The notes beneath the pieces are model-generated. The model ran no database searches. It was given only the letters and a program-made list of their open reading frames with translations, and was not told where the DNA came from. Below, in pieces: positions 8,133 to 55,810 of a DNA stretch of 64,000 nucleotides. How positions within the stretch are numbered: position 1 is the stretch's first letter; every line of letters begins with the position of its first letter. The DNA lies in the NCBI GenBank assembly GCA_035528115.1, contig DATKZF010000003.1, positions 487,089 through 551,088 of the forward strand, in the 5' to 3' direction. The translations under genes and the position numbers were made by a program. The DNA is from Candidatus Bipolaricaulota bacterium. Its GTDB lineage: Bacteria > Patescibacteriota > Patescibacteriia > UBA11705 > DATKZF01.

Positions 8133-9209
8133 ATGCCATTGTACAGAATCATATTAAGGAGAGCTTGGCAGATCAGTTGGAAAAGAAAGTGGCTCTGGTT
8201 TTTGGGTTTTTTTGCCGCGTTTTTAAGCAATGAAACCATCTATGAATCGATTATTTCCGGTTTTAACAGTCGGTTTTCCGGCCAGAGTTTTTCATTATTG
8301 ACCAAGAATTTTTTCGGCCAAGGAATCTTCGATATTTTTAATGTCAGCTTTTTGAAAACGTGGTGGACTTCCGGAGCGACCGGGTTTACTTATTTGTTGC
8401 TTTTGACCGTGGCCTTTGTTTCGCTTCTGTTGTTTTTCATTTTCATTTCGGTGATTTCCCAAGCCGGTTTGATCAAAGCGGCCATTGCCAGCGACGTTAA
8501 GCAGCCATACGGATTGAAACGAGCGCTCAGAGACGGTATTGATCATTTTTGGCCGGTGTTGGGCTTGAACATCGTGACCAAAGGGGCGTTGTTCGGGATT
8601 TTGGCCGTGATCGCTTACGGGGTTAGCTTGTTGATCAAGGTTTGCTCCATAAATGCCATAGATTATATCTTGACGGCATTGTTTGTTTTGATTCTGGTTT
8701 TCGGTTCGCTTTTAATTTATTATTTGACCATTTACGGCACCGCCTTTATCGTTTTGCGCGGAAAAAAGATTTTTTCCAGCATCAAGCTGTCTTGGAGTTT
8801 GTTTTTTAATAATTTTTTGATCAACTTGGAAATGGCTTTGATCCTGTTTTGCTCCGTGGTGATCTTGTCCATTCTTTTAATCGCCGCGCTGTTTATTTTA
8901 AGCGCGCCGTTGATACTTTTGACCTTGCTTCTCGGCGTGGCCGCGGCCGCCAAGGGAGTTATCGTCATTGCCGCGCTCTGGGTGGTTTTGGTGGTGTTGA
9001 TGGTCTTTTTCTTCGGCTCATGGTATTCGACTTTTCAGATTTCTTGCTGGGCCATATTATTCGAGGAGCTGGCTTTGAAAAGAGGCAGATCGAAAATAGC
9101 CAGAATATTCGATTCAATGAAAAATTTGGTTAAAAAAACTCCGGCGAAGAAAAGAAAACCGGTTGTCAAACCTTTGGCCAGACGGACATATAATAGAAAG
9201 AAAAAATAA
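8133..9209 (+). CDS. Polytopic integral membrane protein (8 or more TM helices) with a basic K/R-rich C-terminal tail; function unknown
   Basis: Hydrophobic-helix periodicity throughout; the C-terminus is KKTPAKKRKPVVKPLARRTYNRKKK. Confidence 0.5.
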   Translation: MPLYRIILRRAWQISWKRKWLWFLGFFAAFLSNETIYESIISGFNSRFSGQSFSLLTKNFFGQGIFDIFNVSFLKTWWTSGATGFTYLLLLTVAFVSLLLFFIFISVISQAGLIKAAIASDVKQPYGLKRALRDGIDHFWPVLGLNIVTKGALFGILAVIAYGVSLLIKVCSINAIDYILTALFVLILVFGSLLIYYLTIYGTAFIVLRGKKIFSSIKLSWSLFFNNFLINLEMALILFCSVVILSILLIAALFILSAPLILLTLLLGVAAAAKGVIVIAALWVVLVVLMVFFFGSWYSTFQISCWAILFEELALKRGRSKIARIFDSMKNLVKKTPAKKRKPVVKPLARRTYNRKKK

Positions 9210-9222
9210 AATATTCAATAAA

Positions 9223-9247
9223 AAAAGGGCTTTGGCCCTTTTTTGTT
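9223..9247 (+). terminator. Hairpin AAGGGC-tttg-GCCCTT plus T run
   Basis: Inverted repeat followed by TTTTTTGTTTTT after the membrane protein gene. Confidence 0.55.
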
Positions 9248-9287
9248 TTTAAAAATCCTTGGAATTTTTTTATGGGAAAAAATGCGG

Positions 9288-9314
9288 AGAGCGGAAAGGC
9301 AAGCTTTCCGCTCT
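9288..9314. repeat. AGAGCGGAAAG-loop-CTTTCCGCTCT hairpin; first member of a dispersed hairpin family
   Basis: 11-bp perfect stem. Related copies are at 12812-12833, 12943-12965 and 32327-32359. Confidence 0.6.
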
Positions 9315-9372
9315 TTATGTCCTTTGTTTTTTCGACTGTGCTGTATACGACAGAGGAATTTAAATAACGGCA

Positions 9373-10509
9373 TTATTTTTTTCGCCAGAGAGTGATTACT
9401 CGCTCAATATGCTGGCCGGGTCGAAAATACTCCCAGGTATTCAGGCGGTCAAATGAATTTTTAAGCTCAGCCGAGATATTGACGTTGAAAATTCTTTCTT
9501 TGGTTTTAATTTTGGGAAAAATAAAGACGATGAACGCGCCGGGCGCCAAAATATTATTCAATGAATCGAATGCTTTCAAATATAAATTTTTTAATTCCTT
9601 GATCATCAGGAGTATTTCACTTTCTTTTTCCTTGCCGTACAGCGGCTTGCCCAAAAAAGGCTCGGTAATCACGGCGTCCGGAATGAAGGGCAGATCCTTT
9701 TTGGTCGCGATTGAAGCGTCCAATCTTTCGATAATGATTTGGGAAGATATATTGAATTTCAGTTTCAACCAATCAATGTTTTTTTCGCACTTTTTCAAGG
9801 TCTCCGAATTGATGTCGCTGCCGATGATTTTTTTTACGCCGGACAAAGCCGCTTGTTGCAAGATCGTGCCGAAGCCGCAAAACGGATCCCAAATCGATTC
9901 AGGTTTGACCGGCAATAAATTGACGGCCATCTGCGCGACTTTCGGGGGCAACATGCCAATTTTGGCATCGAATTCCGGCCGGCCGAAATCAAGTCGGTTC
10001 CATCTTTCAAAATCTTGAACGGCCGCGGAGCGGCCGAGCAAGAAATCGGTTCCGTCAAAGAAAACACACAGCTCGACGCCGTCTTCAATCAGTTTGTTTT
10101 TGGCCACGCTGACCGATGACAAAGCGTTGCCCACGGCTCGCACAAAACGGCAAGGCCTGTTTTCTTTGATCAGTTTTTTGATTTCTATGCCGAGCTTATA
10201 AAGCTTCAGATATTTTCCCGTGTAATCGCTCAAGCCGAAAACCATTTTATTTTTTGATGATAAATCTTCTATCAAGACGGCGAGTTTGGCCGGCTCGAGC
10301 TTTTTTTCTCGGTCGATTATTTCACCGAATTTCACGCAGCCGCCCAAACTCTCGAAAAGCGGTCGGTCGATCTTTTTTTGAGACGACAAAATCAGCGTGT
10401 CATTTTTTTCTGAGACAAGTTCGGTTTTTATCGCAGCCTTGGCCAGAACGCTCGCCAGCTCGGCTTTTGAAATCGCCGGAGTTTTTCCAAAGATGAAGAA
10501 ATATTCCAT
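9373..10509 (-). CDS. SAM-dependent RNA methyltransferase (UPF0020/Trm11-like putative N2-guanine methyltransferase with a THUMP-like N-terminal region)
   Basis: Motif I DPFCGFGT and an NPPY-like TEPFLGKP motif. The likely start is MEYFFIFG, preceded by TATAAT; the track's longer ORF would start inside that promoter. Confidence 0.6.
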   Translation of the reverse strand: MEYFFIFGKTPAISKAELASVLAKAAIKTELVSEKNDTLILSSQKKIDRPLFESLGGCVKFGEIIDREKKLEPAKLAVLIEDLSSKNKMVFGLSDYTGKYLKLYKLGIEIKKLIKENRPCRFVRAVGNALSSVSVAKNKLIEDGVELCVFFDGTDFLLGRSAAVQDFERWNRLDFGRPEFDAKIGMLPPKVAQMAVNLLPVKPESIWDPFCGFGTILQQAALSGVKKIIGSDINSETLKKCEKNIDWLKLKFNISSQIIIERLDASIATKKDLPFIPDAVITEPFLGKPLYGKEKESEILLMIKELKNLYLKAFDSLNNILAPGAFIVFIFPKIKTKERIFNVNISAELKNSFDRLNTWEYFRPGQHIERVITLWRKK

Positions 10510-14354: not shown

Positions 14355-14417
14355 AGGTCATGGAAATACGGATGATTACGAGTTATATGGCATTATAAAA
14401 ACACCTAATTCACTATT

Positions 14418-14972
14418 ATGAAAGCGACAATACTACTTATCACCATAATCTTCCTCTTAACCGGCTGTAGTCAGAATAATGAAAATGTCATGCAAGTGGA
14501 TGAAACCCCCGATGTCCAAAGAGTCGTTTTGGATGAAACAAAGGCACCAAACACATACAATGACGAAGAATTAAATATTTCTTTTGAATTTCCATTAAAT
14601 TGGGAAATATATACACAAGAAAACGAGGAACACACTGTTTATTTTGAGCCTGAGGGTGATTACAATAGAACTATAATCTTTGATTATCAATCCGAAAGTT
14701 TTGACGAATACGAGAGGAGGGGCAATGTCGGTAAACCACCAAAAGCAGAGGATTACACGGAAGACTACCTGGTAAACTTCACGGAGAAATTAGCAGAAGA
14801 GATGTATTTCGCAGACAACCCAAACTATCCAGCTAGAATGTATCAAGGATTCGAGTCAGTCAAATACATAATAAAAATTGATGAAAAACACGTCATGTTT
14901 CGTCGAGAATATTGGTTGAACCAACAGGAAGAACAAGATCTAGTAGAAATATTAAATTCCCTTTCTTTCTAG
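14418..14972 (+). CDS. Acidic lipoprotein of unknown function
   Basis: Lipobox LLTGC. Its codon usage (ata/cta/tta/aca-rich) differs from the flanking genes. Confidence 0.45.
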   Translation: MKATILLITIIFLLTGCSQNNENVMQVDETPDVQRVVLDETKAPNTYNDEELNISFEFPLNWEIYTQENEEHTVYFEPEGDYNRTIIFDYQSESFDEYERRGNVGKPPKAEDYTEDYLVNFTEKLAEEMYFADNPNYPARMYQGFESVKYIIKIDEKHVMFRREYWLNQQEEQDLVEILNSLSF

Positions 14973-15169
14973 TAGTTTTTATAACACGATATAACAGCAT
15001 ATAACTGGCTCACTCTTGGTGCTGTTCTGACGAAAAATTGTAATACCAACGTTCGCGTAAATGCTTCGGCGGTGAGTCGCTGTCGCTCTATATTATACCG
15101 CCTCGCACTTCAGCTATACGCAAACGTCAGCTGAAATTGTGAAACATTTTATTCATTCACCAAACTCAT

Positions 15170-15717: not shown

Positions 15718-16953
15718 ATGAACGCTTTTGAGAACGCCATGAAGCAGCTCGATAACGCCGCGCAAACGATAAATTTGGACAAAGATGTTCACGAAATGCT
15801 GAAAAGACCGCAAAAGACCATTGAGGTGAATTTGCCCGTGAGAATGGATGACAGTTCGTTGAAGTTTTTTGACGGTTATCGCGTGCAATACAATAATTGG
15901 CGCGGACCTTACAAAGGCGGCATCAGATATTTTCCACAGGTTGATTTGAATGAAGTGAAAGCTTTGTCTTTTTGGATGACCATAAAATGCGCGGTTTTGG
16001 ACATACCATTTGGCGGCGGCAAAGGCGGCGTGACCGTTGACCCCAAGAAATTGTCAGAAAAAGAATTGGAAAGTTTAAGCCGAGCATATATAAGAGCGAT
16101 TTATAATGACGTGGGTCCGGACAAAGACGTGCCCGCGCCCGATGTTTACACCACCCCGCAAATCATGGCTTGGATGACTGATGAATTTTCGAAAATAAAA
16201 GGCGAAGCGACTCCCGGTGTAATTACCGGAAAACCCATTGAAGCCGGCGGCTCGGCCGGACGCGACACGGCCACGGCTCAAGGCGGCTATTATCTCTTGA
16301 AGCATTTTATGGAAATGGAACAAAGAGAGCCGCAAAATCAGACCGTGGCCATTCAAGGCTTCGGCAATGCCGGTTCGGTCATGACTCAGTTATGCGAAAA
16401 AGACGGCTTAAAAGTGGTGGCGGTTTCCGACTCTCAAGGCGGAATTTTCAAAGCCGACGGCTTGGATATTTCAAAAGTCATTGAACATAAAGGGAAAAAC
16501 GGTTCGGTCCAAAATTTCGAAGGCGCGCAAAATATTTCAAATGAAGAATTGCTTGAACTTGATGTCCAATTTTTAATTCCGGCCGCTTTGGAAAATCAAA
16601 TCACCAAAGACAATGTCGATAGGATAAAAGCCAAAGCGATTTTGGAATTAGCCAACGGACCGATCGCGCCCGAGGCTGACGTGGCCTTATTCGAAAGAGG
16701 CATTAAGGTCATTCCCGATGTCCTGGCCAACGCCGGCGGAGTGACCGTTTCCTATTTCGAATGGTATCAGAACACGCATAATGAAAAATGGACGCGCGAA
16801 GAGGTTTTTGAAAAATTGAAACCGAAGATGATTGATAATTTCACGCAAGTTATCGAGCGATCGGAAAAATATCAAATTGATTATAGAAGAGCGGCGTTTG
16901 TTTTGGCGCTGGAGAGGCTGCAAGAATCCTGTAACATGAATCATGAAGCATAG
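15718..16953 (+). CDS. gdhA: Glutamate dehydrogenase (Glu/Leu/Phe/Val dehydrogenase family)
   Basis: Catalytic IPFGGGKGGV motif and Rossmann GFGNAGS. Confidence 0.9.
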   Translation: MNAFENAMKQLDNAAQTINLDKDVHEMLKRPQKTIEVNLPVRMDDSSLKFFDGYRVQYNNWRGPYKGGIRYFPQVDLNEVKALSFWMTIKCAVLDIPFGGGKGGVTVDPKKLSEKELESLSRAYIRAIYNDVGPDKDVPAPDVYTTPQIMAWMTDEFSKIKGEATPGVITGKPIEAGGSAGRDTATAQGGYYLLKHFMEMEQREPQNQTVAIQGFGNAGSVMTQLCEKDGLKVVAVSDSQGGIFKADGLDISKVIEHKGKNGSVQNFEGAQNISNEELLELDVQFLIPAALENQITKDNVDRIKAKAILELANGPIAPEADVALFERGIKVIPDVLANAGGVTVSYFEWYQNTHNEKWTREEVFEKLKPKMIDNFTQVIERSEKYQIDYRRAAFVLALERLQESCNMNHEA

Positions 16954-16957
16954 TTAC

Positions 16958-17124
16958 GAATTACAATTATCTAGTAGGCCGATTAATATATGTTACAAAT
17001 TACATTCATCAATAGTTTTAAGCCTGAGAATCTTGTGATTCGTAACAATCGCTTGAAAGCTAAATAGTCGATTGTAATACGTAACAAATAACCTAAAAGC
17101 TAAATAGAATTTTGTAATTCGTAA
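16958..17124. repeat. MITE-like element with no cargo, bounded by inverted repeats GTTACGAATTACAA ... TTTTGTAATTCGTAAC and containing internal partial copies
   Basis: The terminal inverted repeats are read directly. An internal 42-nt stretch (ACAAATAACCTAAAAGCTAAATAGAATTTTGTAATTCGTAAC) recurs inverted at 40480-40535. Confidence 0.6.
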
Positions 17125-17144
17125 CAAATCACTAATTTCATTAA

Positions 17145-17762
17145 ATGCATTACGAACTAATACTTCAAAAAAAAGGATATCACTTCATCGCCGGCATTGA
17201 TGAAGCCGGACGAGGGGCCTGGGCGGGCCCCTTGTTTGTCGGCGCCGTGATTTTGCCGCTGGGCGAATTGAAAAAATTCAAAGGCGTCGGGGATTCGAAA
17301 AAATTGACCGCGGAAAAAAGAGAAATTTGCGCCAAAACAATAAAAAAATATTGCGTGGCCTGGGCGATCGGCAGGGTCGAGTCCGGTGAAATCGATTCAT
17401 TGGGACTTCAAAACGCTCATTTGCTGGCGGTCGAAAGAGCGGTATTGGGGCTGGGCATCATGCCCGATTATGTGTTGGTTGACCGCATCGCCAAAGTGAA
17501 ATTTCCCATGCCTTTTGAAAACGTGATTAAAGGCGATGATAAATTCATTTCCGTGGGCGCGGCTTCGATTATGGCCAAGGTGGAAAGAGACGCTGAAATG
17601 AGCGAGCTGGAAAATAAATATCCCAATTATCATTTTAAAGAGCATAAAGGTTATGGCACAGGAGAGCACATGGACGAAATAGCCAAATTCGGCTTGTGCG
17701 ACCTTCATCGACGCTTGTTTTCCCCGATTAAGGAAATAGATAAAAAAATGCAGTTGTTTTAA
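17145..17762 (+). CDS. rnhB: Ribonuclease HII
   Basis: IAGIDEAGRGAWAGPLFVGAV matches the RNase HII active-site region (DEAGRG). Confidence 0.9.
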   Translation: MHYELILQKKGYHFIAGIDEAGRGAWAGPLFVGAVILPLGELKKFKGVGDSKKLTAEKREICAKTIKKYCVAWAIGRVESGEIDSLGLQNAHLLAVERAVLGLGIMPDYVLVDRIAKVKFPMPFENVIKGDDKFISVGAASIMAKVERDAEMSELENKYPNYHFKEHKGYGTGEHMDEIAKFGLCDLHRRLFSPIKEIDKKMQLF

Positions 17763-17782
17763 TGATTTGCTGTTGCTTGGAC

Positions 17783-17811
17783 TTGACAAGAAACAAAACC
17801 GGTGTTAATAT
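17783..17811 (+). promoter_or_regulatory. Sigma-70 promoter TTGACA, 17-nt spacer, TAATAT, followed by a GGAGGTGG RBS at 17843-17850
   Basis: Read directly; it drives the GC-rich ORF that starts at 17855. Confidence 0.5.
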
Positions 17812-17854
17812 ATCGACGTCATTTCACATCTCACAATTTGCGTGGAGGTGGCAG

Positions 17855-18274
17855 ATGTCCGATGACAGAAAATTCGAGGAGGCTTTCCCGGGAAGCTATG
17901 GACACTCGCAGCTCGATGAGGAGATTCCGAGCCAAGGTTCGGATCCCGAGTCCATGCTGCTTCAGGGCGGCCGAGAGCTTCGCCTTGACATGATCGGTGA
18001 TGAACTGGTCAGAAGGCTGACGCCGCGGGAGGAAAAGATCCTGCGCATGCGGTTCGGCATCGGCGAGGACGATGAGTCTCCGCTGAAGGACAAGGACATG
18101 TCGGAGGAAACTCGACGGCGCGTGGAATTGATCGAGCAGAAGTCGTTGAGGAATCCCCGCCATCCCTGCCAGAAGAATCAAGCCGAAGCTCGTCGCCGAG
18201 TGCTTGAGCTTTTGGCGAAATCCCGGCGCGATCTCCGCGCAGTTGTCGACATCGAAGAAGAAGCCGTGGGCTAG
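17855..18274 (+). CDS. Small protein made of a sigma-70 (RpoD-type) region 3.2/4 fragment, GC-rich and foreign-looking
   Basis: LTPREEKILRMRFGIG...TRRRVELIEQKSLRNPRHP is near-identical in pattern to RpoD LTAREAKVLRMRFGI...TRERIRQIEAKALRKLRHP, but the HTH turn TLEEVGKQFDV is replaced by EDDESPLKDKDMSEE. GC is about 58% with G/C-ending codons. Confidence 0.5.
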   Translation: MSDDRKFEEAFPGSYGHSQLDEEIPSQGSDPESMLLQGGRELRLDMIGDELVRRLTPREEKILRMRFGIGEDDESPLKDKDMSEETRRRVELIEQKSLRNPRHPCQKNQAEARRRVLELLAKSRRDLRAVVDIEEEAVG

Positions 18275-18296
18275 CAAGCACAGTTGTTAGCCTCTC

Positions 18297-18320
18297 AAGG
18301 ACTCGAAATCGGGTCCTTTT
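18297..18320 (+). terminator. Hairpin GGACTCG-aaat-CGGGTCC (one G-U pair) plus TTTT
   Basis: Directly after the stop of the sigma-fragment ORF. Confidence 0.55.
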
Positions 18321-18375
18321 AAAATTGTTTTAAGCCTTGAAAAAAAGGGTTGATTGGGATAGAATGTTAATGTTG

Positions 18376-18874
18376 GGTTACAAATTACAAATGAAGACGA
18401 ATAACACAAATGGTTACAAATATGCCTAATGATAAGGTCATATATCCGGAATTGAGTTATCAAATAGTCGGAATTTTGTTCGACGTGCACAATGAGATTG
18501 GAGGCAAAGTGAGCGAGAAAGTTATTTCGCGGGCAATCGCGTCGGATTTGGATAACTGTCATCTCAAGTATGAAAAAGAAATACAGGTCCCCGTTTTCTA
18601 CAAAGGAAAGCAGATTGGATATTATTTTCTTGATTTCTTAATAGAGGGGAAAATTGTGCTGGAAATAAAAAAGGGCTTTCGATTCGCAAATAAAGATTTT
18701 GATCAAATACATGATTATTTGCAGTCAACCGGTTTGAAATTGGGCATCTTGGCGATATTTTCGGACACAAAAGTAAAATTCAGAAGAATACTAAACGAGT
18801 ATTAATTTTTATTAAACAATGAATACAAATTTGTATTCATTTGTAACATTTGTACGGATTTGTAATTTGTAACC
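18376..18874. mobile_element. Mini-cassette bounded by perfect 16-bp inverted repeats GGTTACAAATTACAAA (18376-18391 and 18859-18874) carrying one GxxExxY-family gene
   Basis: Left inverted repeat GGTTACAAATTACAAA; right TTTGTAATTTGTAACC is its exact reverse complement. An 18-bp palindrome GAATACAAATTTGTATTC sits at the 3' side of the cargo. Confidence 0.6.
18410..18805 (+). CDS. GxxExxY-family small protein (TIGR04256-like, putative PD-(D/E)XK fold)
   Basis: Family-typical core VPVFYKGKQIG...DFLIEGKIVLEIK...QIHDYLQSTGLKLGILAIF and an N-terminal G..SE.V helix. Confidence 0.6.
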   Translation: MVTNMPNDKVIYPELSYQIVGILFDVHNEIGGKVSEKVISRAIASDLDNCHLKYEKEIQVPVFYKGKQIGYYFLDFLIEGKIVLEIKKGFRFANKDFDQIHDYLQSTGLKLGILAIFSDTKVKFRRILNEY

Positions 18875-18876
18875 TT

Positions 18877-21279
18877 ATGAAAAAGTATAATCATCAAAAA
18901 ATCGAAAAAAAATGGCAAGACTTATGGGAAGAAAAAGAGGTCTTTCAGGCTTTGGATTTTGATAAAACCGACAAGCCCAAATATTATTGTCTGATAGAAT
19001 TTCCTTATCCGTCAGGCCAGGGACTTCACGTGGGTCATCCGAGAAGCTACACGGCCATGGATGTCATTGTCAGAAAGAAAAGAATGGAAGGCTATAATGT
19101 TTTATTTCCCATCGGCTGGGACGCTTTTGGTTTGCCCACGGAAAATTACGCCATCAAGACGGGCATTCATCCGAAGCTGGCCACCTCGCAAAACATTAAA
19201 AGATTCACTCAGCAAATCAAAAGTCTGGGCTTGAGTTTTGACTGGTCAAGGGAAATAAACACCACCGATCCCAAATATTACAAATGGACGCAGTGGATTT
19301 TTTTGAAACTTTACGAAAACGGTTTGGCTTATAAAAAGAAAATAGCCATCAATTGGTGCCCGTCATGCAAAATCGGTTTGGCCAATGAAGAAGTGATAGA
19401 CAACAAATGCGAGCGTTGCGGCCATCAGGTGGAAAGACGAGACATGGAGCAATGGCTTTTGAAGATCACCGAATACGCCGATCGTTTGATTGAAGATTTG
19501 TCCACCGTGGATTATCCCGAGAGCGTCAGATCCGCGCAGATCAATTGGATCGGCAGGAGCTATGGCGCGGAAGTGGATTTTAAAATCAAAGATTCGGATA
19601 AGAAAATAACGGTGTTCACGACCAGGCCGGACACGCTTTTCGGCGCCACCTACGTGGTGCTTTCGCCGGAGCATGAATTGGTTTCAAAAATAACGGCCAA
19701 GGCTCAAAAAGCCAAGGTCGAAAAATACCAATTGGCGGCCAGAAAGAAATCCGATTTGGAAAGAACCGAAACCGGCAAGGAAAAGACGGGCGTTTTCACC
19801 GGCGCTTTTGCCATCAATCCGGTCAATGGAGAAGAATTGCCGATTTGGATCGCCGATTATGTTTTAGCCAATTACGGCACGGGCGCGATCATGGCCGTGC
19901 CGGCTCATGATGAGCGGGATTTTGAATTCGCGACCGCTTATAAATTGCCGATTGTGGAAGTGATTACAGGTGGAAATATAACCGAGCAAGCATACACGGG
20001 AGAGGGTGAATTAATCAATTCCGACTTTCTAAACGGTCTGACGGTCGAGGAAGCCAAAGACAAAATGATCGCTTGGTTGGAAAAAAACGAGGCCGGCAAG
20101 TACGCGGTCAATTATAAATTGAGAGATTGGGTTTTTTCGCGTCAACATTATTGGGGCGAGCCCATCCCGATCGTTTTTTGCAAAAAATGCGGGGAAGTGC
20201 CAATCCCGGAAAAAGATTTGCCCGTGGTTTTGCCCAAAGTCGATAATTACAAACCGACTGAGACCGGCGAGTCTCCCTTGGCGAATATTAAAGAATGGGT
20301 GAACGTCAAATGTCCGAAATGCGGCGGCCCAGCCAGAAGGGAAACTGACACCATGCCGAATTGGGCGGGCAGTTCCTGGTATTTTTTACGCTATTGCGAT
20401 CCGAAAAACGATAAAGCTTTTGCCGATCCGGACAAATTGAAATATTGGCTGCCCGTTGATTTGTACAACGGCGGCATGGAGCACACCACTTTGCATTTGC
20501 TGTATTCTCGATTTTGGCACAAATTTTTATACGATATTGGCCAAGTGCCGACTGCAGAACCGTACGCGGCGCGTCGCTCGCACGGCATGATTTTGGGCGA
20601 AGACGGCCAGAAAATGTCCAAATCCAGGGGCAATGTCATTAATCCTGATGGAATTATCAAAGAATACGGAGCTGATGTTTTGCGCGTTTATGAAATGTTT
20701 ATGGGGCCGTACGGCCAGGCCATTTCCTGGTCAACCAGCGGTCTTAACGGCGCGCGCCGATTTTTGGATCGGGTCTATAATTTCAAAGCGTTCAAAAACA
20801 ACGGTCATGAAGATGATCCGAACACTTTGATGCTTTTGCATCAGACCATAAAAAAGGTCACCGAGGACATCGATAAAATGAGATTCAATACTTGCGTTTC
20901 CGCTCTGATGATTTTGCTCAATGATTTTGAAGAGAAAAAAGTCGTGTCCAAAGACACTTGGAAAAAATATCTGATTTTGCTCTCGCCGTTCGCCCCTCAT
21001 CTGGCCGAAGAGCTGTGGAGTGAAATGGGTGAGAAAAGATCGATTTGTTCCGTGGCTTGGCCGGAGTATGACAAGGATAAGATCGTGGAAGAAAAAGTGA
21101 AAATCGTGGTTCAGATCAATGGCAAGCTTAAAGTGAGTTTTGAGGCCGAGGCCGGCATCTCCGAAGATGAGGCCAAGGAAGACGCTTTGGGATTGGAAAA
21201 GGTCAAGCAGGCGCTTAAAGATAAAAAAATAAAGAAAACGATTTTCGTTAAGGATAGGTTGATCAATTTCGTGGTTTGA
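18877..21279 (+). CDS. leuS: Leucine--tRNA ligase
   Basis: HIGH-type motif [14 protein letters not shown], editing domain and a zinc CxxC...CxxC. The ATG lies 2 nt after the right inverted repeat of the upstream cassette. Confidence 0.95.
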
Positions 21280-21336: not shown

Positions 21337-21394
21337 GGAACCGCCATGCAGAGACGCGTCATGGCGCGTCTCTGCATGGCGGTTCTTTGTTTTC
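21337..21394 (+). terminator. Long perfect hairpin GGAACCGCCATGCAGAGACGCG-tcatgg-CGCGTCTCTGCATGGCGGTTC plus T-rich tail (AGAGACGCG family)
   Basis: 22-bp stem; a second short hairpin AAAAACGGTTTTT/AAAAACCGTTTTT precedes it at 21307-21333. Confidence 0.75.
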
Positions 21395-36412: not shown

Positions 36413-37321
36413 AGCATGGGTTTTATTGGAAGATAAATGACTACTATCATTATGCCAGTTTTATCGGTGTCTGGCAATGTCATTTGGCTTCCAATGATCT
36501 AAATAAGCCTGTAAGCCGAATTCTGTGGCCTCCGCCAAGAATTCGAACGGCAGATTTTAGAACCTGTCGGCCGAAGCCTTGGCGAAGGTCGATGACCATC
36601 TATCTAGGTCCGACATTGCTGCCGGACTCAAGCGAGCTACCAAATTTGCTCTTGCACCTGATAGGGTTTACCACGCTTGGACGTTGCCGTCCAAGGAGAG
36701 AAGTATGATTTAAATGGTCACGTGAACAATTTAACTTTTTTTCTTCTCACTTTTCACCTTTGGCCGCGAAGCGGCCACCCTGAGTGAGGAGCAGTGCGAC
36801 GAATCGAAGGGTGTAGATGTATCCTTCGACTCGCTATGCTCGCTCAGGATAGTCGCTTCGCGACTAGTATAGTCTCTGTGGCACTGGCCGTCGGCCGAGT
36901 TTCTTTCGACCCTATCTCAGAAATAATTTTCTATTCAATTGGCGAATTTAGGCTGCAAATTGTTCAAAACTCGTCACCATAATAATCATATTATGCTTCT
37001 TCGTCTTTCACAATTTTCGCTCTAAATTCGCTCAATCTCATTACGAAACTTATGTCTGAGATAGGGTCTTGTTATCTCGGCATCGCCCGGACGTTATCCG
37101 GTATCATTTTTTATGGTGTTCGGACTTTCCTCCCTCCTTCGCTCCTTGCTGCGCTCGAGCTTCGAAGGGCAAGCCCTCTTAGTTTGCGAGGGGGGTTGCC
37201 GTTCTTGGCTTCAAACAAAGCAAGGAGCGAAGAAGAGCGGTCATCCGGCTTATTCAGATCAATGAAATTATAGCAAAAAAATGATGAAATGTCAATGGTA
37301 ATTTAAAAACCGCCAGCATGG

Positions 37322-40390: not shown

Positions 40391-40394
40391 ATTA

Positions 40395-40612
40395 CGAATT
40401 ATTACTTCTAATAAGCTAGCCTTGGTTTTAGGTTTTGTGAATCGTTACGAATGATTACAAATACGTTTATGTTACGAATTACAATATTCTATTTAGCTTT
40501 CAGGTTATTTGTTACGAATTACAATATTCTCAGGCATAAAGCTATAGGTGAATGTAATTTGGAAAAATGCTCCATGATACGTGATCCATGATCTATGGTA
40601 ACGTCTCGTAAT
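40395..40612. repeat. Intergenic array of GTTACGAAT(G)ATTACAA repeat units, plus an inverted copy of the 42-nt repeat ACAAATAACCTGAAAGCTAAATAGAATATTGTAATTCGTAAC and an inverted partial ATCATGGATCAC head
   Basis: The GTTACGAATTACAAT motif occurs twice in tandem (40493, 40523). The 42-nt stretch at 40480-40535 is the reverse complement, with 2 mismatches, of 17080-17124. The stretch 40565-40612 is the reverse complement of the head of the repeat at 26380. Confidence 0.6.
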
Positions 40613-46640: not shown

Positions 46641-47741
46641 ATGAAAAAATGCATCGAAGGCTCCGAGGCCATAGCCGAAACAATCAAACTCTGCCGGCCG
46701 GAAGTGGTGGCTGTTTTTCCGATTACGCCGCAGACTCATATAATAGAGCATTTGGCTCAATATAAAGCGGACGGAGACGCTGATTATGAATATATCAGAG
46801 CGGAGAGCGAGTTTTCCGCGGCTTCCATTATTTTGGGCGCGGCCGCCATGGGCTCCCGCGTTTACACGGCTTCCAGTTCGCAAGGACTGCTTTTGATGAC
46901 TGAGGTGATTTACAATATCGCGGGCATGCGTTTACCCGTGGTCATGACCGCGGCCAACAGAGCCATTTCGGCGCCGCTGAACATTTGGAATGATCAACAA
47001 GATGTCATGCCGTTTCGGGACGCGGGTTGGCTGATGCTTTTCGCGGAAGACAATCAGGAAGCGGTTGATTTTCATTTGATGGCTTATAAAATAGCGGAAA
47101 GATTTTCTTTGCCGGCCATGGTTTGCGTGGACGGCTTCGTATTAACGCATACCTTTGAAACCGTTGATTTGCCTTCAAGCGCTGAGGTTAAAAAATTTTT
47201 GCCGCGATTTTCTCCGAAAAAAAATTCGGCTTTGGACGTGATTCGGCCGGTAAGTTTGGGGTGTTTTGCCACGCCGGACGATTATCAGGAAATCAGACTG
47301 GAATTGCACGAAGATTTATTGAAAACAAAAGAAGCTTTTTTATCGGAAGCCGTAAAATTCAAACAGATTTTCGGCCGACAATTGAATGTCTGTCAGTATT
47401 ACGGCCCGGCAAACGCGAAGACCGTGATTGTTTCCATGGGTTCGGTTTTGGGCACCATAAAAGAAGCGGTTGATGAGCTGAATAAAAAAAGCGGCCAAGT
47501 CGGCGTTTTGAAAATTACCATGTTTCGGCCTTTCCCGGAAAAAGAAATTTTTGATATTTTAAAAAACAGAAAAAAAGTCATTGTTTTGGACAAGTCGATT
47601 TCTCTCGGTCGCGGCGGAATTTTATTCAATGAAATCAAACAATGTTTGTCAGGATCAAAGGTTGAAGTGAAGGGAGTCGTGGAGGGATTGGGAGGCAGAG
47701 ATGTGACCATGGGATTTGTTTCTGAGCTTGTAGCTTTTTAG
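46641..47741 (+). CDS. porA: 2-oxoacid:ferredoxin oxidoreductase alpha subunit
   Basis: N-terminal GSEAIAE...CRPEVVAVFPITPQT and the domain order of POR alpha. Confidence 0.85.
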   Translation: MKKCIEGSEAIAETIKLCRPEVVAVFPITPQTHIIEHLAQYKADGDADYEYIRAESEFSAASIILGAAAMGSRVYTASSSQGLLLMTEVIYNIAGMRLPVVMTAANRAISAPLNIWNDQQDVMPFRDAGWLMLFAEDNQEAVDFHLMAYKIAERFSLPAMVCVDGFVLTHTFETVDLPSSAEVKKFLPRFSPKKNSALDVIRPVSLGCFATPDDYQEIRLELHEDLLKTKEAFLSEAVKFKQIFGRQLNVCQYYGPANAKTVIVSMGSVLGTIKEAVDELNKKSGQVGVLKITMFRPFPEKEIFDILKNRKKVIVLDKSISLGRGGILFNEIKQCLSGSKVEVKGVVEGLGGRDVTMGFVSELVAF

Positions 47742-48157
47742 CTTGTAGGTTGTAGGTGGCAAAATATGGAAAAACAAGTAATAAACAGTTATAAGGATTT
47801 GATTGTTTGGCAGAAAGCCATGGACTTGGTGGTTGCCGTTTATAAGCTTACGGATAAGTTCCCAAGAGAAGAAGCGTACGGGCTTACTTCTCAGATGCGA
47901 CGCAGCTCCATTTCCATTCCTTCAAATATTGCGGAAGGAAGAAGGCGCGGAACAAGAAGAGAGTACAGGCACTTCTTAATTGTCGCGTATTCATCGGGAG
48001 CTGAGCTTGAAACTCAACTTGAAATCGCGAAAAGATTAAATTTTTCGGAAGATATCGTTTATAATGTCGCTGCTGATTTATTAGAGGAGATTATGAAAAT
48101 ATTAAATTCAATGACGTCGTCGCTTTATGTCTAAAGCCACCTAATCAGCTAACAAGC
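47741..48157. mobile_element. Cassette bounded by imperfect inverted repeats GCTTGTAGGTTGTAGGTGGC (left) and GCCACCTAATCAGCTAACAAGC (right) carrying a four-helix-bundle gene, inserted between porA and porB
   Basis: The outer 6 bp (GCTTGT) and inner 8 bp (TAGGTGGC) of the two arms are perfect reverse complements. An empty abutting-palindrome version is at 45979-46040. Confidence 0.55.
47766..48134 (+). CDS. Four-helix-bundle protein (TIGR02436, the 23S rRNA intervening sequence protein family)
   Basis: YKDLIVWQKAMDLVVAVYKLTDKFPREEAYGLTSQMRRSSISIPSNIAEG...GAELETQL matches the family consensus closely. Confidence 0.7.
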   Translation: MEKQVINSYKDLIVWQKAMDLVVAVYKLTDKFPREEAYGLTSQMRRSSISIPSNIAEGRRRGTRREYRHFLIVAYSSGAELETQLEIAKRLNFSEDIVYNVAADLLEEIMKILNSMTSSLYV

Positions 48158-48162
48158 TCATT

Positions 48163-55658: not shown

Positions 55659-55810
55659 AGGGTTACAAATTACGAATGTTTTGTAAAAAGGTTACCAATG
55701 GTTACGAATTTACAAATAATTTTTAGTTTATTATAAATTTTATCTCGTATGCTAAAGCCTGTACATCTTGTAACTAACAGATATGATTTTAGCTTTTTGG
55801 AGAGAAATTG

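Follow-up and report, generated by a model that had tools for sequence, protein, structure and literature searches.

A GxxExxY gene between mirror-image word arrays in the leuS leader of a patescibacterial genome: one copy of a probable family of small mobile cassettes

How does a single small gene, enclosed by perfectly matching inverted ends, come to lie between the promoter and the start codon of leuS? The question is raised by positions 18376-18874 of a 64,000-nt stretch of contig DATKZF010000003.1 (assembly GCA_035528115.1, Patescibacteria; this whole stretch is referred to as the window below), where the leuS leader is filled by a gene of the GxxExxY family and its flanking repeats. The answer that is favored here, with a probability of roughly 0.7, is that this segment belongs to a widespread family of small mobile cassettes, each without a promoter and with a single gene, in which a minimal PD-(D/E)XK nuclease gene of the GxxExxY family is placed between arms of 3-5 tandem words of 7-8 nt. 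The words of these arms are of the TAC[G/A]AAT type on the sense strand upstream of the gene, and the reverse complement of this type is found downstream.

An earlier note, made from the letters of the window, had already read the segment as a small mobile or recombination-driven element, and had named the outcomes that would tell against this, namely a motif that is simply a common promoter or operator word with no tendency to pair around small genes, and orthologous loci that always contain the gene without the repeats. Comparative evidence supports the mobile element, and each of these questions, although posed beforehand as a possible refutation, was decided in favor of a mobile cassette.

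Architecture of the leuS cassette

The outer ends of the cassette are formed by the 16-mer GGTTACAAATTACAAA at 18376-18391 and its exact reverse complement at 18859-18874, both of which were found as previously described. With up to two mismatches allowed, the 16-mer has four matches in the window, compared to 0.07 expected from shuffles. The pair constitutes the outer ends of a 49-nt inverted repeat with 78% complementarity (18376-18424 and 18826-18874), which exceeds in length all others among the 44 inverted repeats detected in the window at a span of up to 1.2 kb. A chance origin of the inverted repeat was ruled out by the shuffles and by this census of inverted repeats.

The description of the ends as terminal inverted repeats is correct with regard to their inverted arrangement, but not in the sense of a single simple repeat, as the arms are arrays of short words. 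The cassette is thus a promoterless segment of 499 bp, in which one gene lies between mirror-image arrays of 7-nt words. Each arm contains five words, which are spaced from the outer end by 7, 10, 9, and 10 nt in both arms (word starts at 18379, 18386, 18396, 18405, and 18415 on the left, and at 18829, 18839, 18848, 18858, and 18865 on the right; Table 1). The internal 18-bp palindrome GAATACAAATTTGTATTC, which had been noted on the 3′ side of the gene, is present at 18821-18838 and is the junction of one forward word and the first reverse word. In L003, a related locus discussed below, AATGAATATTAA encodes N-E-Y-stop, so that the bases matching the palindrome of the window are the last codons of the open reading frame (ORF) there; hence, the window copy carries a small duplication at the 3′ end of the ORF. 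When the segment is folded as RNA, the left and right arms pair with each other in the minimum-free-energy as well as in the centroid structure (z = -4.9).

From the -10 box of the leuS promoter to the start of the cassette, the distance is approximately 10 nt, and 2 nt remain between the end of the cassette and the leuS ATG. Its adjacency to the start codon, which the earlier note had worded as abutting, therefore stands, while exact contact does not. Owing to this position between promoter and ATG, the cassette forms the first cistron of the leuS transcript, which is predicted to start at about 18372-18375, just 5′ of the left arm. The -35 and -10 boxes are invariant in an alignment of five sequences, including relatives without the cassette. 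Upstream of the promoter, a terminator-like hairpin is found that also exists in the relatives L003, L089, and L091, and that was not called by a consensus terminator scan. An Rfam scan of 16800-19100 with E-values up to 1 returned neither a T-box nor any other leader RNA family.

That a single GxxExxY-family gene lies between the arms was confirmed by profile scores, as the product matches TIGR04256 with 86.4 bits (cut-off 35) over profile positions 1-115 of 116, and PF13366 with 88.7 bits (cut-off 22). The ORF most likely starts at 18422 rather than at 18410, since homologs align from the former position. The protein carries the PD-(D/E)XK constellation (helix Glu, Asp, Glu-x-Lys) together with the restriction-endonuclease fold, which makes it a member of this group, and the catalytic residues are invariant. 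Accordingly, the previous statement that no transposase is present in the window understates the coding capacity of the cassette, the cargo of which is a probable nuclease. PHROGs returned no family for the GxxExxY protein, PADLOC returned none for it or for the four-helix-bundle cargo of related cassettes (see below), and a sequence search against solved structures yielded noise at best (E = 0.5).

Table 1. Positions of the leuS cassette, its surroundings and related repeat units in the window.
Feature	Position	Strand	Remark
Terminator-like hairpin AAGGACTC...GGGTCCTTTT	18297..18320	+	Ends the upstream sigma-like gene; outside the cassette
leuS promoter: TTGAAA, 17-nt spacer, TAGAAT	18337..18365	+	Best promoter-like match in the region, 10/12
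Left arm	18376..18421	+	Forward words TACAAAT, TACAAAT, GACGAAT, CACAAAT, TACAAAT; outer tip GGTTAC
GxxExxY / PD-(D/E)XK (PDDEXK_3) gene, 127 aa, cassette cargo	18422..18805	+	
Remnant copy of the last ORF codons (AAACAATGAATAC), then the 18-bp palindrome	18814..18838	+	From alignment with L003
Right arm	18826..18874	+	Reverse words ATTTGTA, five times; outer tip GTAACC
leuS, host gene	18877..21279	+	ATG at 18877; cassette occupies its 5′ leader
Gene-less inverted-repeat unit, same words	16953..17125	+	Lies between gdh stop and rnhB start; 21-nt arms 86% complementary, 131 nt between
One-sided word array	40391..40545	-	Reads in the direction of the flanking genes
Second cassette, with four-helix-bundle (23S rRNA intervening-sequence protein) gene 47766-48134	47724..48159	+	Arms GCTTGTAG / CTAACAAGC and AGGTGGC / GCCACCT
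Word cluster directly 5′ of the rplS start	55661..55729	-	ATTCGTAATTTGTAACC-CT-ATG, mirror of the leuS junction

Occupied and empty leuS loci, and the same words elsewhere

A metagenome scan with LeuS yielded only distant loci (54-60% identity, many of them from gut bacteria), which are unfit for an empty-site comparison, and syntenic relatives were obtained by protein search and contig look-ups. A closer relative (L003/L004), the GxxExxY protein of which is 82% identical to that of the window, has the same layout as the window, with the sigma-like gene, hairpin, and promoter being followed by forward words of the TACAAAT type, the ORF, reverse words, and the leuS ATG. Between the window and L003, the left arms are 83% and the right arms 85% identical, which far exceeds the 45-46% identity that the ORF and leuS show at third codon positions, and the arms are hence under strong constraint.

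Empty orthologous loci were found as well: the GxxExxY gene is missing at leuS in L089, L091, L092, and L093, the LeuS proteins of which are 69-76% identical to that of the window. In L089, L091, and L092 (LeuS 72-76% identical), the order gdh, rnhB, small ORF, sigma-like ORF, hairpin, same promoter, and leuS is retained, and a gene-less arm leader of 70-100 nt replaces the cassette. This leader comprises four TACGGAT-type words followed by three AT[T/C]CGTA-type words in L092, ACAGATC/AACGGAT words followed by ATCTGTT/ATCCGTT words in L091, and a plain hairpin in L089. Neither the gene nor a gene-less arm unit is found at leuS in L093 (LeuS 69% identical). In L092, GATGAATAAATTCGTA aligns with the last codons of the ORF and the first right-arm word, with an alignment score of 75 compared to 58.3 ± 5.8 for shuffles and a shuffle maximum of 81, which is at most suggestive of a deletion derivative that has lost the ORF.

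Heptamer words are also observed in other intergenic DNA of these relatives, as L089 contains tandem arrays at 9140-9340 (GAGACAC repeated, GGCAATA three times, and CTGCCT-type reverse words), and L091 contains ATACGAG/TACAGAT words at 9300-9400. The words are different at each intergenic locus, and word arrays are therefore a general, fast-changing intergenic feature of the lineage. Another motif, CCTGAGCG-N-AGTCGAA(G/T)G, is located in the loop of the leuS-leader hairpin of L089 (9950-9985), 5′ of the L092 promoter (20-60), and on the minus strand in the RNase P insertion of the window (~36795-36850, discussed below).

In the window, the core word TTAC[AG]AAT occurs in 34 copies, 28 of which fall into 10.3 kb of intergenic DNA, where 1.1 copies are expected from composition. 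Three further sites had been listed as carrying the same end sequence, and they turned out to differ in kind. The cargo-less unit near 16958-17124 is a real gene-less inverted repeat, which contains internal tandem subunits of 40 nt. The unit at 40395-40540 is indeed tandem, yet the array is direct and one-sided, with units recurring every 40 nt, and does not form an inverted pair, and the site at 55662-55720 contains words in both orientations, but only a weak inverted repeat. A 30-mer, AAAGCTAAATAGAAT[T/A]TTGTAATTCGTAAC, is common to 17096-17125 and 40471-40500, which are identical bar this one position. Moreover, ATT[C/T]GTAA is found directly before several start codons in the orientation of the gene (rplS, 46641, 54767, 40390, and rnhB). 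A dispersed subunit of ~40 nt, (A)AAGC[T/A]AGCTAA-TAG...AATTCGTAAC, which has a right-arm word at its end, is arranged in tandem at 17047-17126 and 40470-40545, and is present singly before the starts at 46641, 54767, and 40390.

The placement of ATT[C/T]GTAA before start codons and the intergenic position of 28 of the 34 word copies would be compatible with host regulatory DNA, in which the words serve as signals of an operator, promoter, or leader, and the GxxExxY gene lies among them by coincidence. This explanation is highly improbable, as the words accompany GxxExxY into unrelated contexts in other species, occur on both sides of the gene in opposite orientation, and differ between cassettes of one genome (see the following section). 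Furthermore, relatives keep the leuS promoter with different words or with none, and no known leader RNA such as a T-box matches.

The cassette family and its relocation in Patescibacteria

An alignment scan for GxxExxY proteins with one genome per species yielded 80 loci, nearly all of them from Patescibacteria. Together with the loci obtained before (the window and a few look-ups), this resulted in 86 genes with recoverable flanks, 75 of which were non-redundant and usable. When the 100 nt upstream were compared to the 100 nt downstream, the inverted-repeat score had a median of 34 for the elements' own arms (n = 75), as opposed to 21 when the arms of different elements were combined and 16 for 238 control genes from these loci. 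The word TAC-N-A-[AT]-[ATC] occurs 2.9 times per 100 nt in forward orientation upstream and 2.8 times per 100 nt in reverse orientation downstream, which is about 17-fold above the background of 0.17, and at least two words are found on each side in 51 of the 75 elements. The expectation of a common promoter word that is not paired around cargo has thereby failed, and inverted, strictly polar arrays around GxxExxY genes are the rule.

Elements have a median length of 483 bp. The gene points in the same direction as its downstream neighbor in 74 of 77 cases and as its upstream neighbor in 70 of 76, and the stop-to-start spacers, which typically measure 30-50 nt, are filled by the arms, so that the left tip is found just past the previous stop codon and the right tip mostly 0-6 nt from the next ATG. 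Complementarity often extends into the stop codon of the neighbor and into the bases before the next start, for example in TAA-CCCTACGG...CCGTAGGG-TTA-TATG. Which variant of the word is used is specific for the element and matched across both arms (TACGAAA/TTTCGTA, TACTAAT/ATTAGTA, CACTAAT/ATTAGTG, TCTCGAA/TTCGAGA, and ATGCGGA/TCCGCAT), and the words differ even among cassettes within one genome (L157 and L161, L160 and L166, L154 and L167), which argues against a single host factor or a single transposase acting in trans. The two arms of an element covary: for 33 elements, 75% of the cells in the outermost 20 nt of the arms are paired compared to 62.6% after shuffling, and the covariation score of 0.342 (shuffled, 0.156) was reached by none of 500 shuffles, with slid controls at 0.118 or below. 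At the same time, the arm core xACxAA is near-invariant across elements.

With regard to the genomic neighborhood, about a dozen contexts recur among the neighbor clusters listed, and the neighbors of most elements match those of no other element. Hot spots are the junction of rpsG and fusA with nine elements, a secretion-like gene cluster, and the junction of lemA and htpX. The elements between rpsG and fusA are not a clade, as six of the nine have their nearest protein relative in another context. A change of context is best followed in L097, the protein of which is 76-78% identical to those of L119 and L123, while the neighbors are unrelated. The homology among these three loci starts at GGCTACAAAATAC (GGCTAC tip) and stops at ...TTGTAGA(C), with unrelated flanks beyond, and the left arms of L097 and L119 are identical in 39 of 39 bases. 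For 40 pairs of elements that lie in different contexts, arm identity amounts to 63-65%, in comparison to ~51% further out. As homology is bounded by the arm tips across contexts, the relocating unit consists of the ORF and both arms.

Repeated occupation of the same conserved junctions, i.e., the three hot spots named above, might also be explained by a free-standing homing endonuclease gene, the nuclease of which cuts the empty stop/start junction of conserved operons in cells without the gene, whereupon repair copies the gene, and the arms would then be secondary and serve, e.g., RNA-level insulation. Consistent with homing, the GxxExxY protein has a nuclease fold with invariant catalytic residues, the gene is present or absent at the same leuS junction among relatives, and the junction of rpsG and fusA is occupied by unrelated lineages. 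However, inverted arms are not needed for homing, yet they travel with the ORF and outdo it in conservation, and close relatives of the gene are found between unrelated genes, so that repair would lack homologous flanks. Since, in addition, four-helix-bundle cassettes share the architecture without encoding a nuclease (see below), homing is considered unlikely, though not negligible.

Several points weigh against the interpretation as a mobile cassette. Target-site duplications were sought, as the earlier note had suggested, and 52 well-defined termini showed neither a consistent direct repeat nor a shared target motif. The cassette encodes no transposase or recombinase of known kind, and a 127-aa nuclease alone cannot integrate DNA. 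The host genome was viewed through the 64-kb window out of 604 kb, in which no recent transposition was seen. As to the survey, the 80 scan loci were chosen at 44-55% identity to the query and thus represent one subfamily, 24 of the 75 elements are without clear two-sided arrays (other arrangements are found in, e.g., L120 and L141), and 12 poorly anchored elements were removed before covariation was counted. Three plasmid-borne GxxExxY genes from outside the Patescibacteria are flanked by an 11-nt inverted repeat in Treponema and by direct repeats in Fusobacteria and Persicobacter. Lastly, mismatches within the arms comprise 69 G·U and 65 A·C, and this lack of a G·U excess means that a sense-strand RNA signature is not seen, by which a stem is neither proved nor excluded.

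Because G·U pairs are not in excess, xACxAA is near-invariant, and the arms are better conserved than the ORF, the data suggest that the constraint on the arms exceeds that of a simple sense-strand RNA stem, and DNA and RNA roles of the arms may both apply. As for the plasmid-borne genes, the repeats that flank the gene in L176 (Fusobacteria plasmid CP102406.1) and L174 (Persicobacter plasmid) are direct, one example being CAGATTTAATCCGTGTACCTAT on both sides, and flanking repeats may take other forms in other phyla.

The lack of target-site duplication also bears on a conventional terminal-inverted-repeat (TIR) transposon or miniature inverted-repeat transposable element (MITE) family, which would be moved in trans by a transposase encoded elsewhere and in which GxxExxY would be a passenger. 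Inverted repeats do delimit the moving unit, as expected for such a family; the element ends are defined, gene-less units share the words, and the 30-mer is common to two unlinked loci. In contrast, a flanking target duplication, which belongs to such elements, is absent, and the word types differ within one genome, a variation that would be incompatible with one transposase acting in trans. Moreover, the elements are nearly always inserted in sense orientation and exactly between a stop and a start codon, and the cargo is always the same small gene, so that a TIR transposon or MITE family appears quite improbable.

Possible mechanism and known counterparts

For the mobile cassette with word-array arms, a mechanism can be envisaged in which the arms pair as a long stem, be it in the transcript, in single-stranded DNA, or in both, so that the ORF is looped out. 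In the transcript, the stem would bring the upstream host sequence next to the downstream start codon; by analogy with 23S intervening sequences it could be a substrate of RNase III, and it would keep the insertion tolerable to the host operon. The arms would additionally be the substrate for copying the cassette to new sites, on which the encoded nuclease may possibly act, and gene-less units would represent deletion derivatives of cassettes.

The closest known counterparts are the ORF-bearing intervening sequences (IVSs) in the 23S rRNA of Leptospira, Coxiella, Brucella, and Xanthomonas (PMC4990558), both kinds of element being ~430-500 nt in length. The IVS of Coxiella has 428 nt and a 28-bp terminal stem that is cut by RNase III, a four-helix-bundle ORF is located in the loop, and three or four tandem GACAGAT heptamers are found just 5′ of this ORF, while its origin is unknown (PMC4990558). 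In both cases, terminal inverted repeats form a long stem, the loop of which is filled by a single small ORF, and terminal inverted repeats enclosing an ORF are indeed what is found in the leuS cassette. Tandem 7-nt words just 5′ of the ORF are likewise common to both, and the GACAGAT of Coxiella resembles the words of L091 and L092. Both are passively transcribed from a strong host promoter. The window even contains a cassette with the IVS protein family itself (47724-48159). In contrast to the IVSs, the leuS cassette resides in an mRNA leader or operon spacer and not in an rRNA helix (no rRNA gene is present in the window), its ORF encodes a PD-(D/E)XK nuclease and not the four-helix-bundle S23p, and its words form arrays in both arms. 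As the structure fits, but the rRNA location and the ORF family do not, the cassette is referred to as IVS-like and not as an IVS.

The earlier note had extended its proposal to four-helix-bundle genes, and the same layout was found around the gene of this kind in the window and around seven others. The product of 47766-48134 matches PF05635 with 129 bits, and the arms of its cassette, GAGCTTGTAGCT...AGGTGGC and GCCACCT...AGCTAACAAGCTC, consist of words unrelated to those of the GxxExxY cassette. The seven additional four-helix-bundle genes with word-array inverted repeats are located in the Patescibacteria loci L097, L112, L131 (two), L152, L156, and L170, with words such as TTAGTAT/ATACTAA, AAGTCAA/TTGACTT, AATCAAG/TTGATTT, and GAATGTT/AACATTC. 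Judging by the sequences, what is conserved between four-helix-bundle and GxxExxY cassettes is the architecture and not the sequence. In PHROGs, the sole match of the four-helix-bundle protein is the Avd protein of diversity-generating retroelements.

Other small elements share individual traits with the cassettes. Correia/NEMIS MITEs are short intergenic inverted-repeat elements that lie beside genes, are co-transcribed with them, and have dispersed gene-less copies. In Neisseria, their stems are RNase III substrates, a TA target duplication is present, copies are almost identical to each other, and an ORF is lacking, whereas the cassettes are without duplication, have word-array arms that vary between copies, and usually contain an ORF. 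REPIN/RAYT systems similarly combine hairpin-forming intergenic repeat pairs with a small associated gene, and their structure is conserved more than their sequence. However, the RAYT is a single-copy HUH tyrosine transposase that is encoded outside the REPINs, while the cassette gene is located inside the hairpin and encodes a PD-(D/E)XK protein. Integron attC cassettes resemble the present ones in being promoterless single genes downstream of a host promoter, with imperfect palindromes that keep complementarity while the sequence varies. In integrons, attC is placed wholly downstream of the ORF and is recombined by IntI at the attI platform; in contrast, the cassette arms flank the ORF, no integrase was seen, and the insertion sites are scattered. 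Finally, the ends of Tn7 and Mu contain several direct copies of a short site per end, which are inverted between the ends, and TnsA is a PD-(D/E)XK nuclease, i.e., a restriction-endonuclease-fold protein in end chemistry. These transposons differ by being far larger than a 0.5-kb cassette and by their need for a DDE transposase, and nothing comparable is encoded here.

As a tentative and rather speculative extension, GxxExxY and four-helix-bundle cassettes, gene-less hairpins, and classical 23S IVSs might constitute one superfamily of hairpin-armed selfish elements. Such elements would colonize highly transcribed genes at stop/start junctions, in leaders, and in helices of structured RNAs, and would spread by an undescribed hairpin-guided route without a transposase, in which the nuclease or the four-helix-bundle nucleic-acid binder acts on its own word arrays.

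In the full-text literature that was searched, no description of word-array arms around these genes was found, although curated family notes may mention such repeats. PF13366 (GxxExxY) is listed with unknown function (PMC3424549), and the name GxxExxY occurs in two of the papers, the one listed being on reverse transcriptases and mentioning it a single time. Genes of 23S_rRNA_IVP were reported in cas operons, and a preprint on rRNA insertions in the Candidate Phyla Radiation (CPR) describes 23S_rRNA_IVP (PF05635) in CPR rRNA insertions as uncharacterized, with flanking repeats being mentioned in neither case. For rRNA intervening sequences, origin and mobility continue to be called unclear decades after the first reports (PMC4990558). 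In Patescibacteria, both gene families are now found in cassettes with precise ends, word-array arms, unit-wise change of context, and putative gene-less derivatives. With defined ends, a candidate enzyme whose catalytic residues can be identified, and both occupied and empty sites available in nature, the question becomes open to experiment. The cassettes are also relevant for the annotation of reduced genomes, as they are insertions within essential operons (the leuS leader, rpsG and fusA), the arms of which could be misread as promoters, operators, or CRISPR-like repeats.

Hairpin insertions are seen in another RNA of the window, too. The RNase P RNA gene (Rfam RF00010, 142.8 bits) at 36496-37181 on the minus strand has a length of 686 nt compared to 367 positions of the model, and it contains several large insertions at helix tips. 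One insert of 186 nt contains a 161-nt hairpin (36908-37068) with 24-nt arms of 92% complementarity (36908-36931 and 37045-37068), and the loop of the next helix contains a self-complementary insert of ~80 nt with CCTGAGCGAGCATAGCGAGTCGAAGG. These inserts look like IVS-like hairpin insertions in a further structured RNA.

Close to the cassette, the gene upstream of the leuS promoter (17762-18274) aligns with RpoD-type sigma-70 factors only over their C-terminal end, i.e., the final ~60-90 profile positions. Its predicted length amounts to 170 aa in the window, as opposed to 106-108 aa in relatives (L089 9462-9788; L091 9504-9824), in which it is equipped with a promoter-like site and a ribosome-binding site of its own, and it looks like an orphan fragment of the C-terminal end of a sigma factor that is conserved beside leuS. 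Downstream, between leuS and the TrmB-like gene, a near-perfect, loopless palindrome of 48 bp is located at 21338-21385 (24-nt arms, 96% complementary). Elsewhere in the window, a 26-nt inverted repeat with 81% complementarity (14382-14407 and 14970-14995) brackets an ORF of 184 aa (14418-14972), which has a weak match to PsbP_2 just under the cut-off and which may be another type of cargo or a product of chance.

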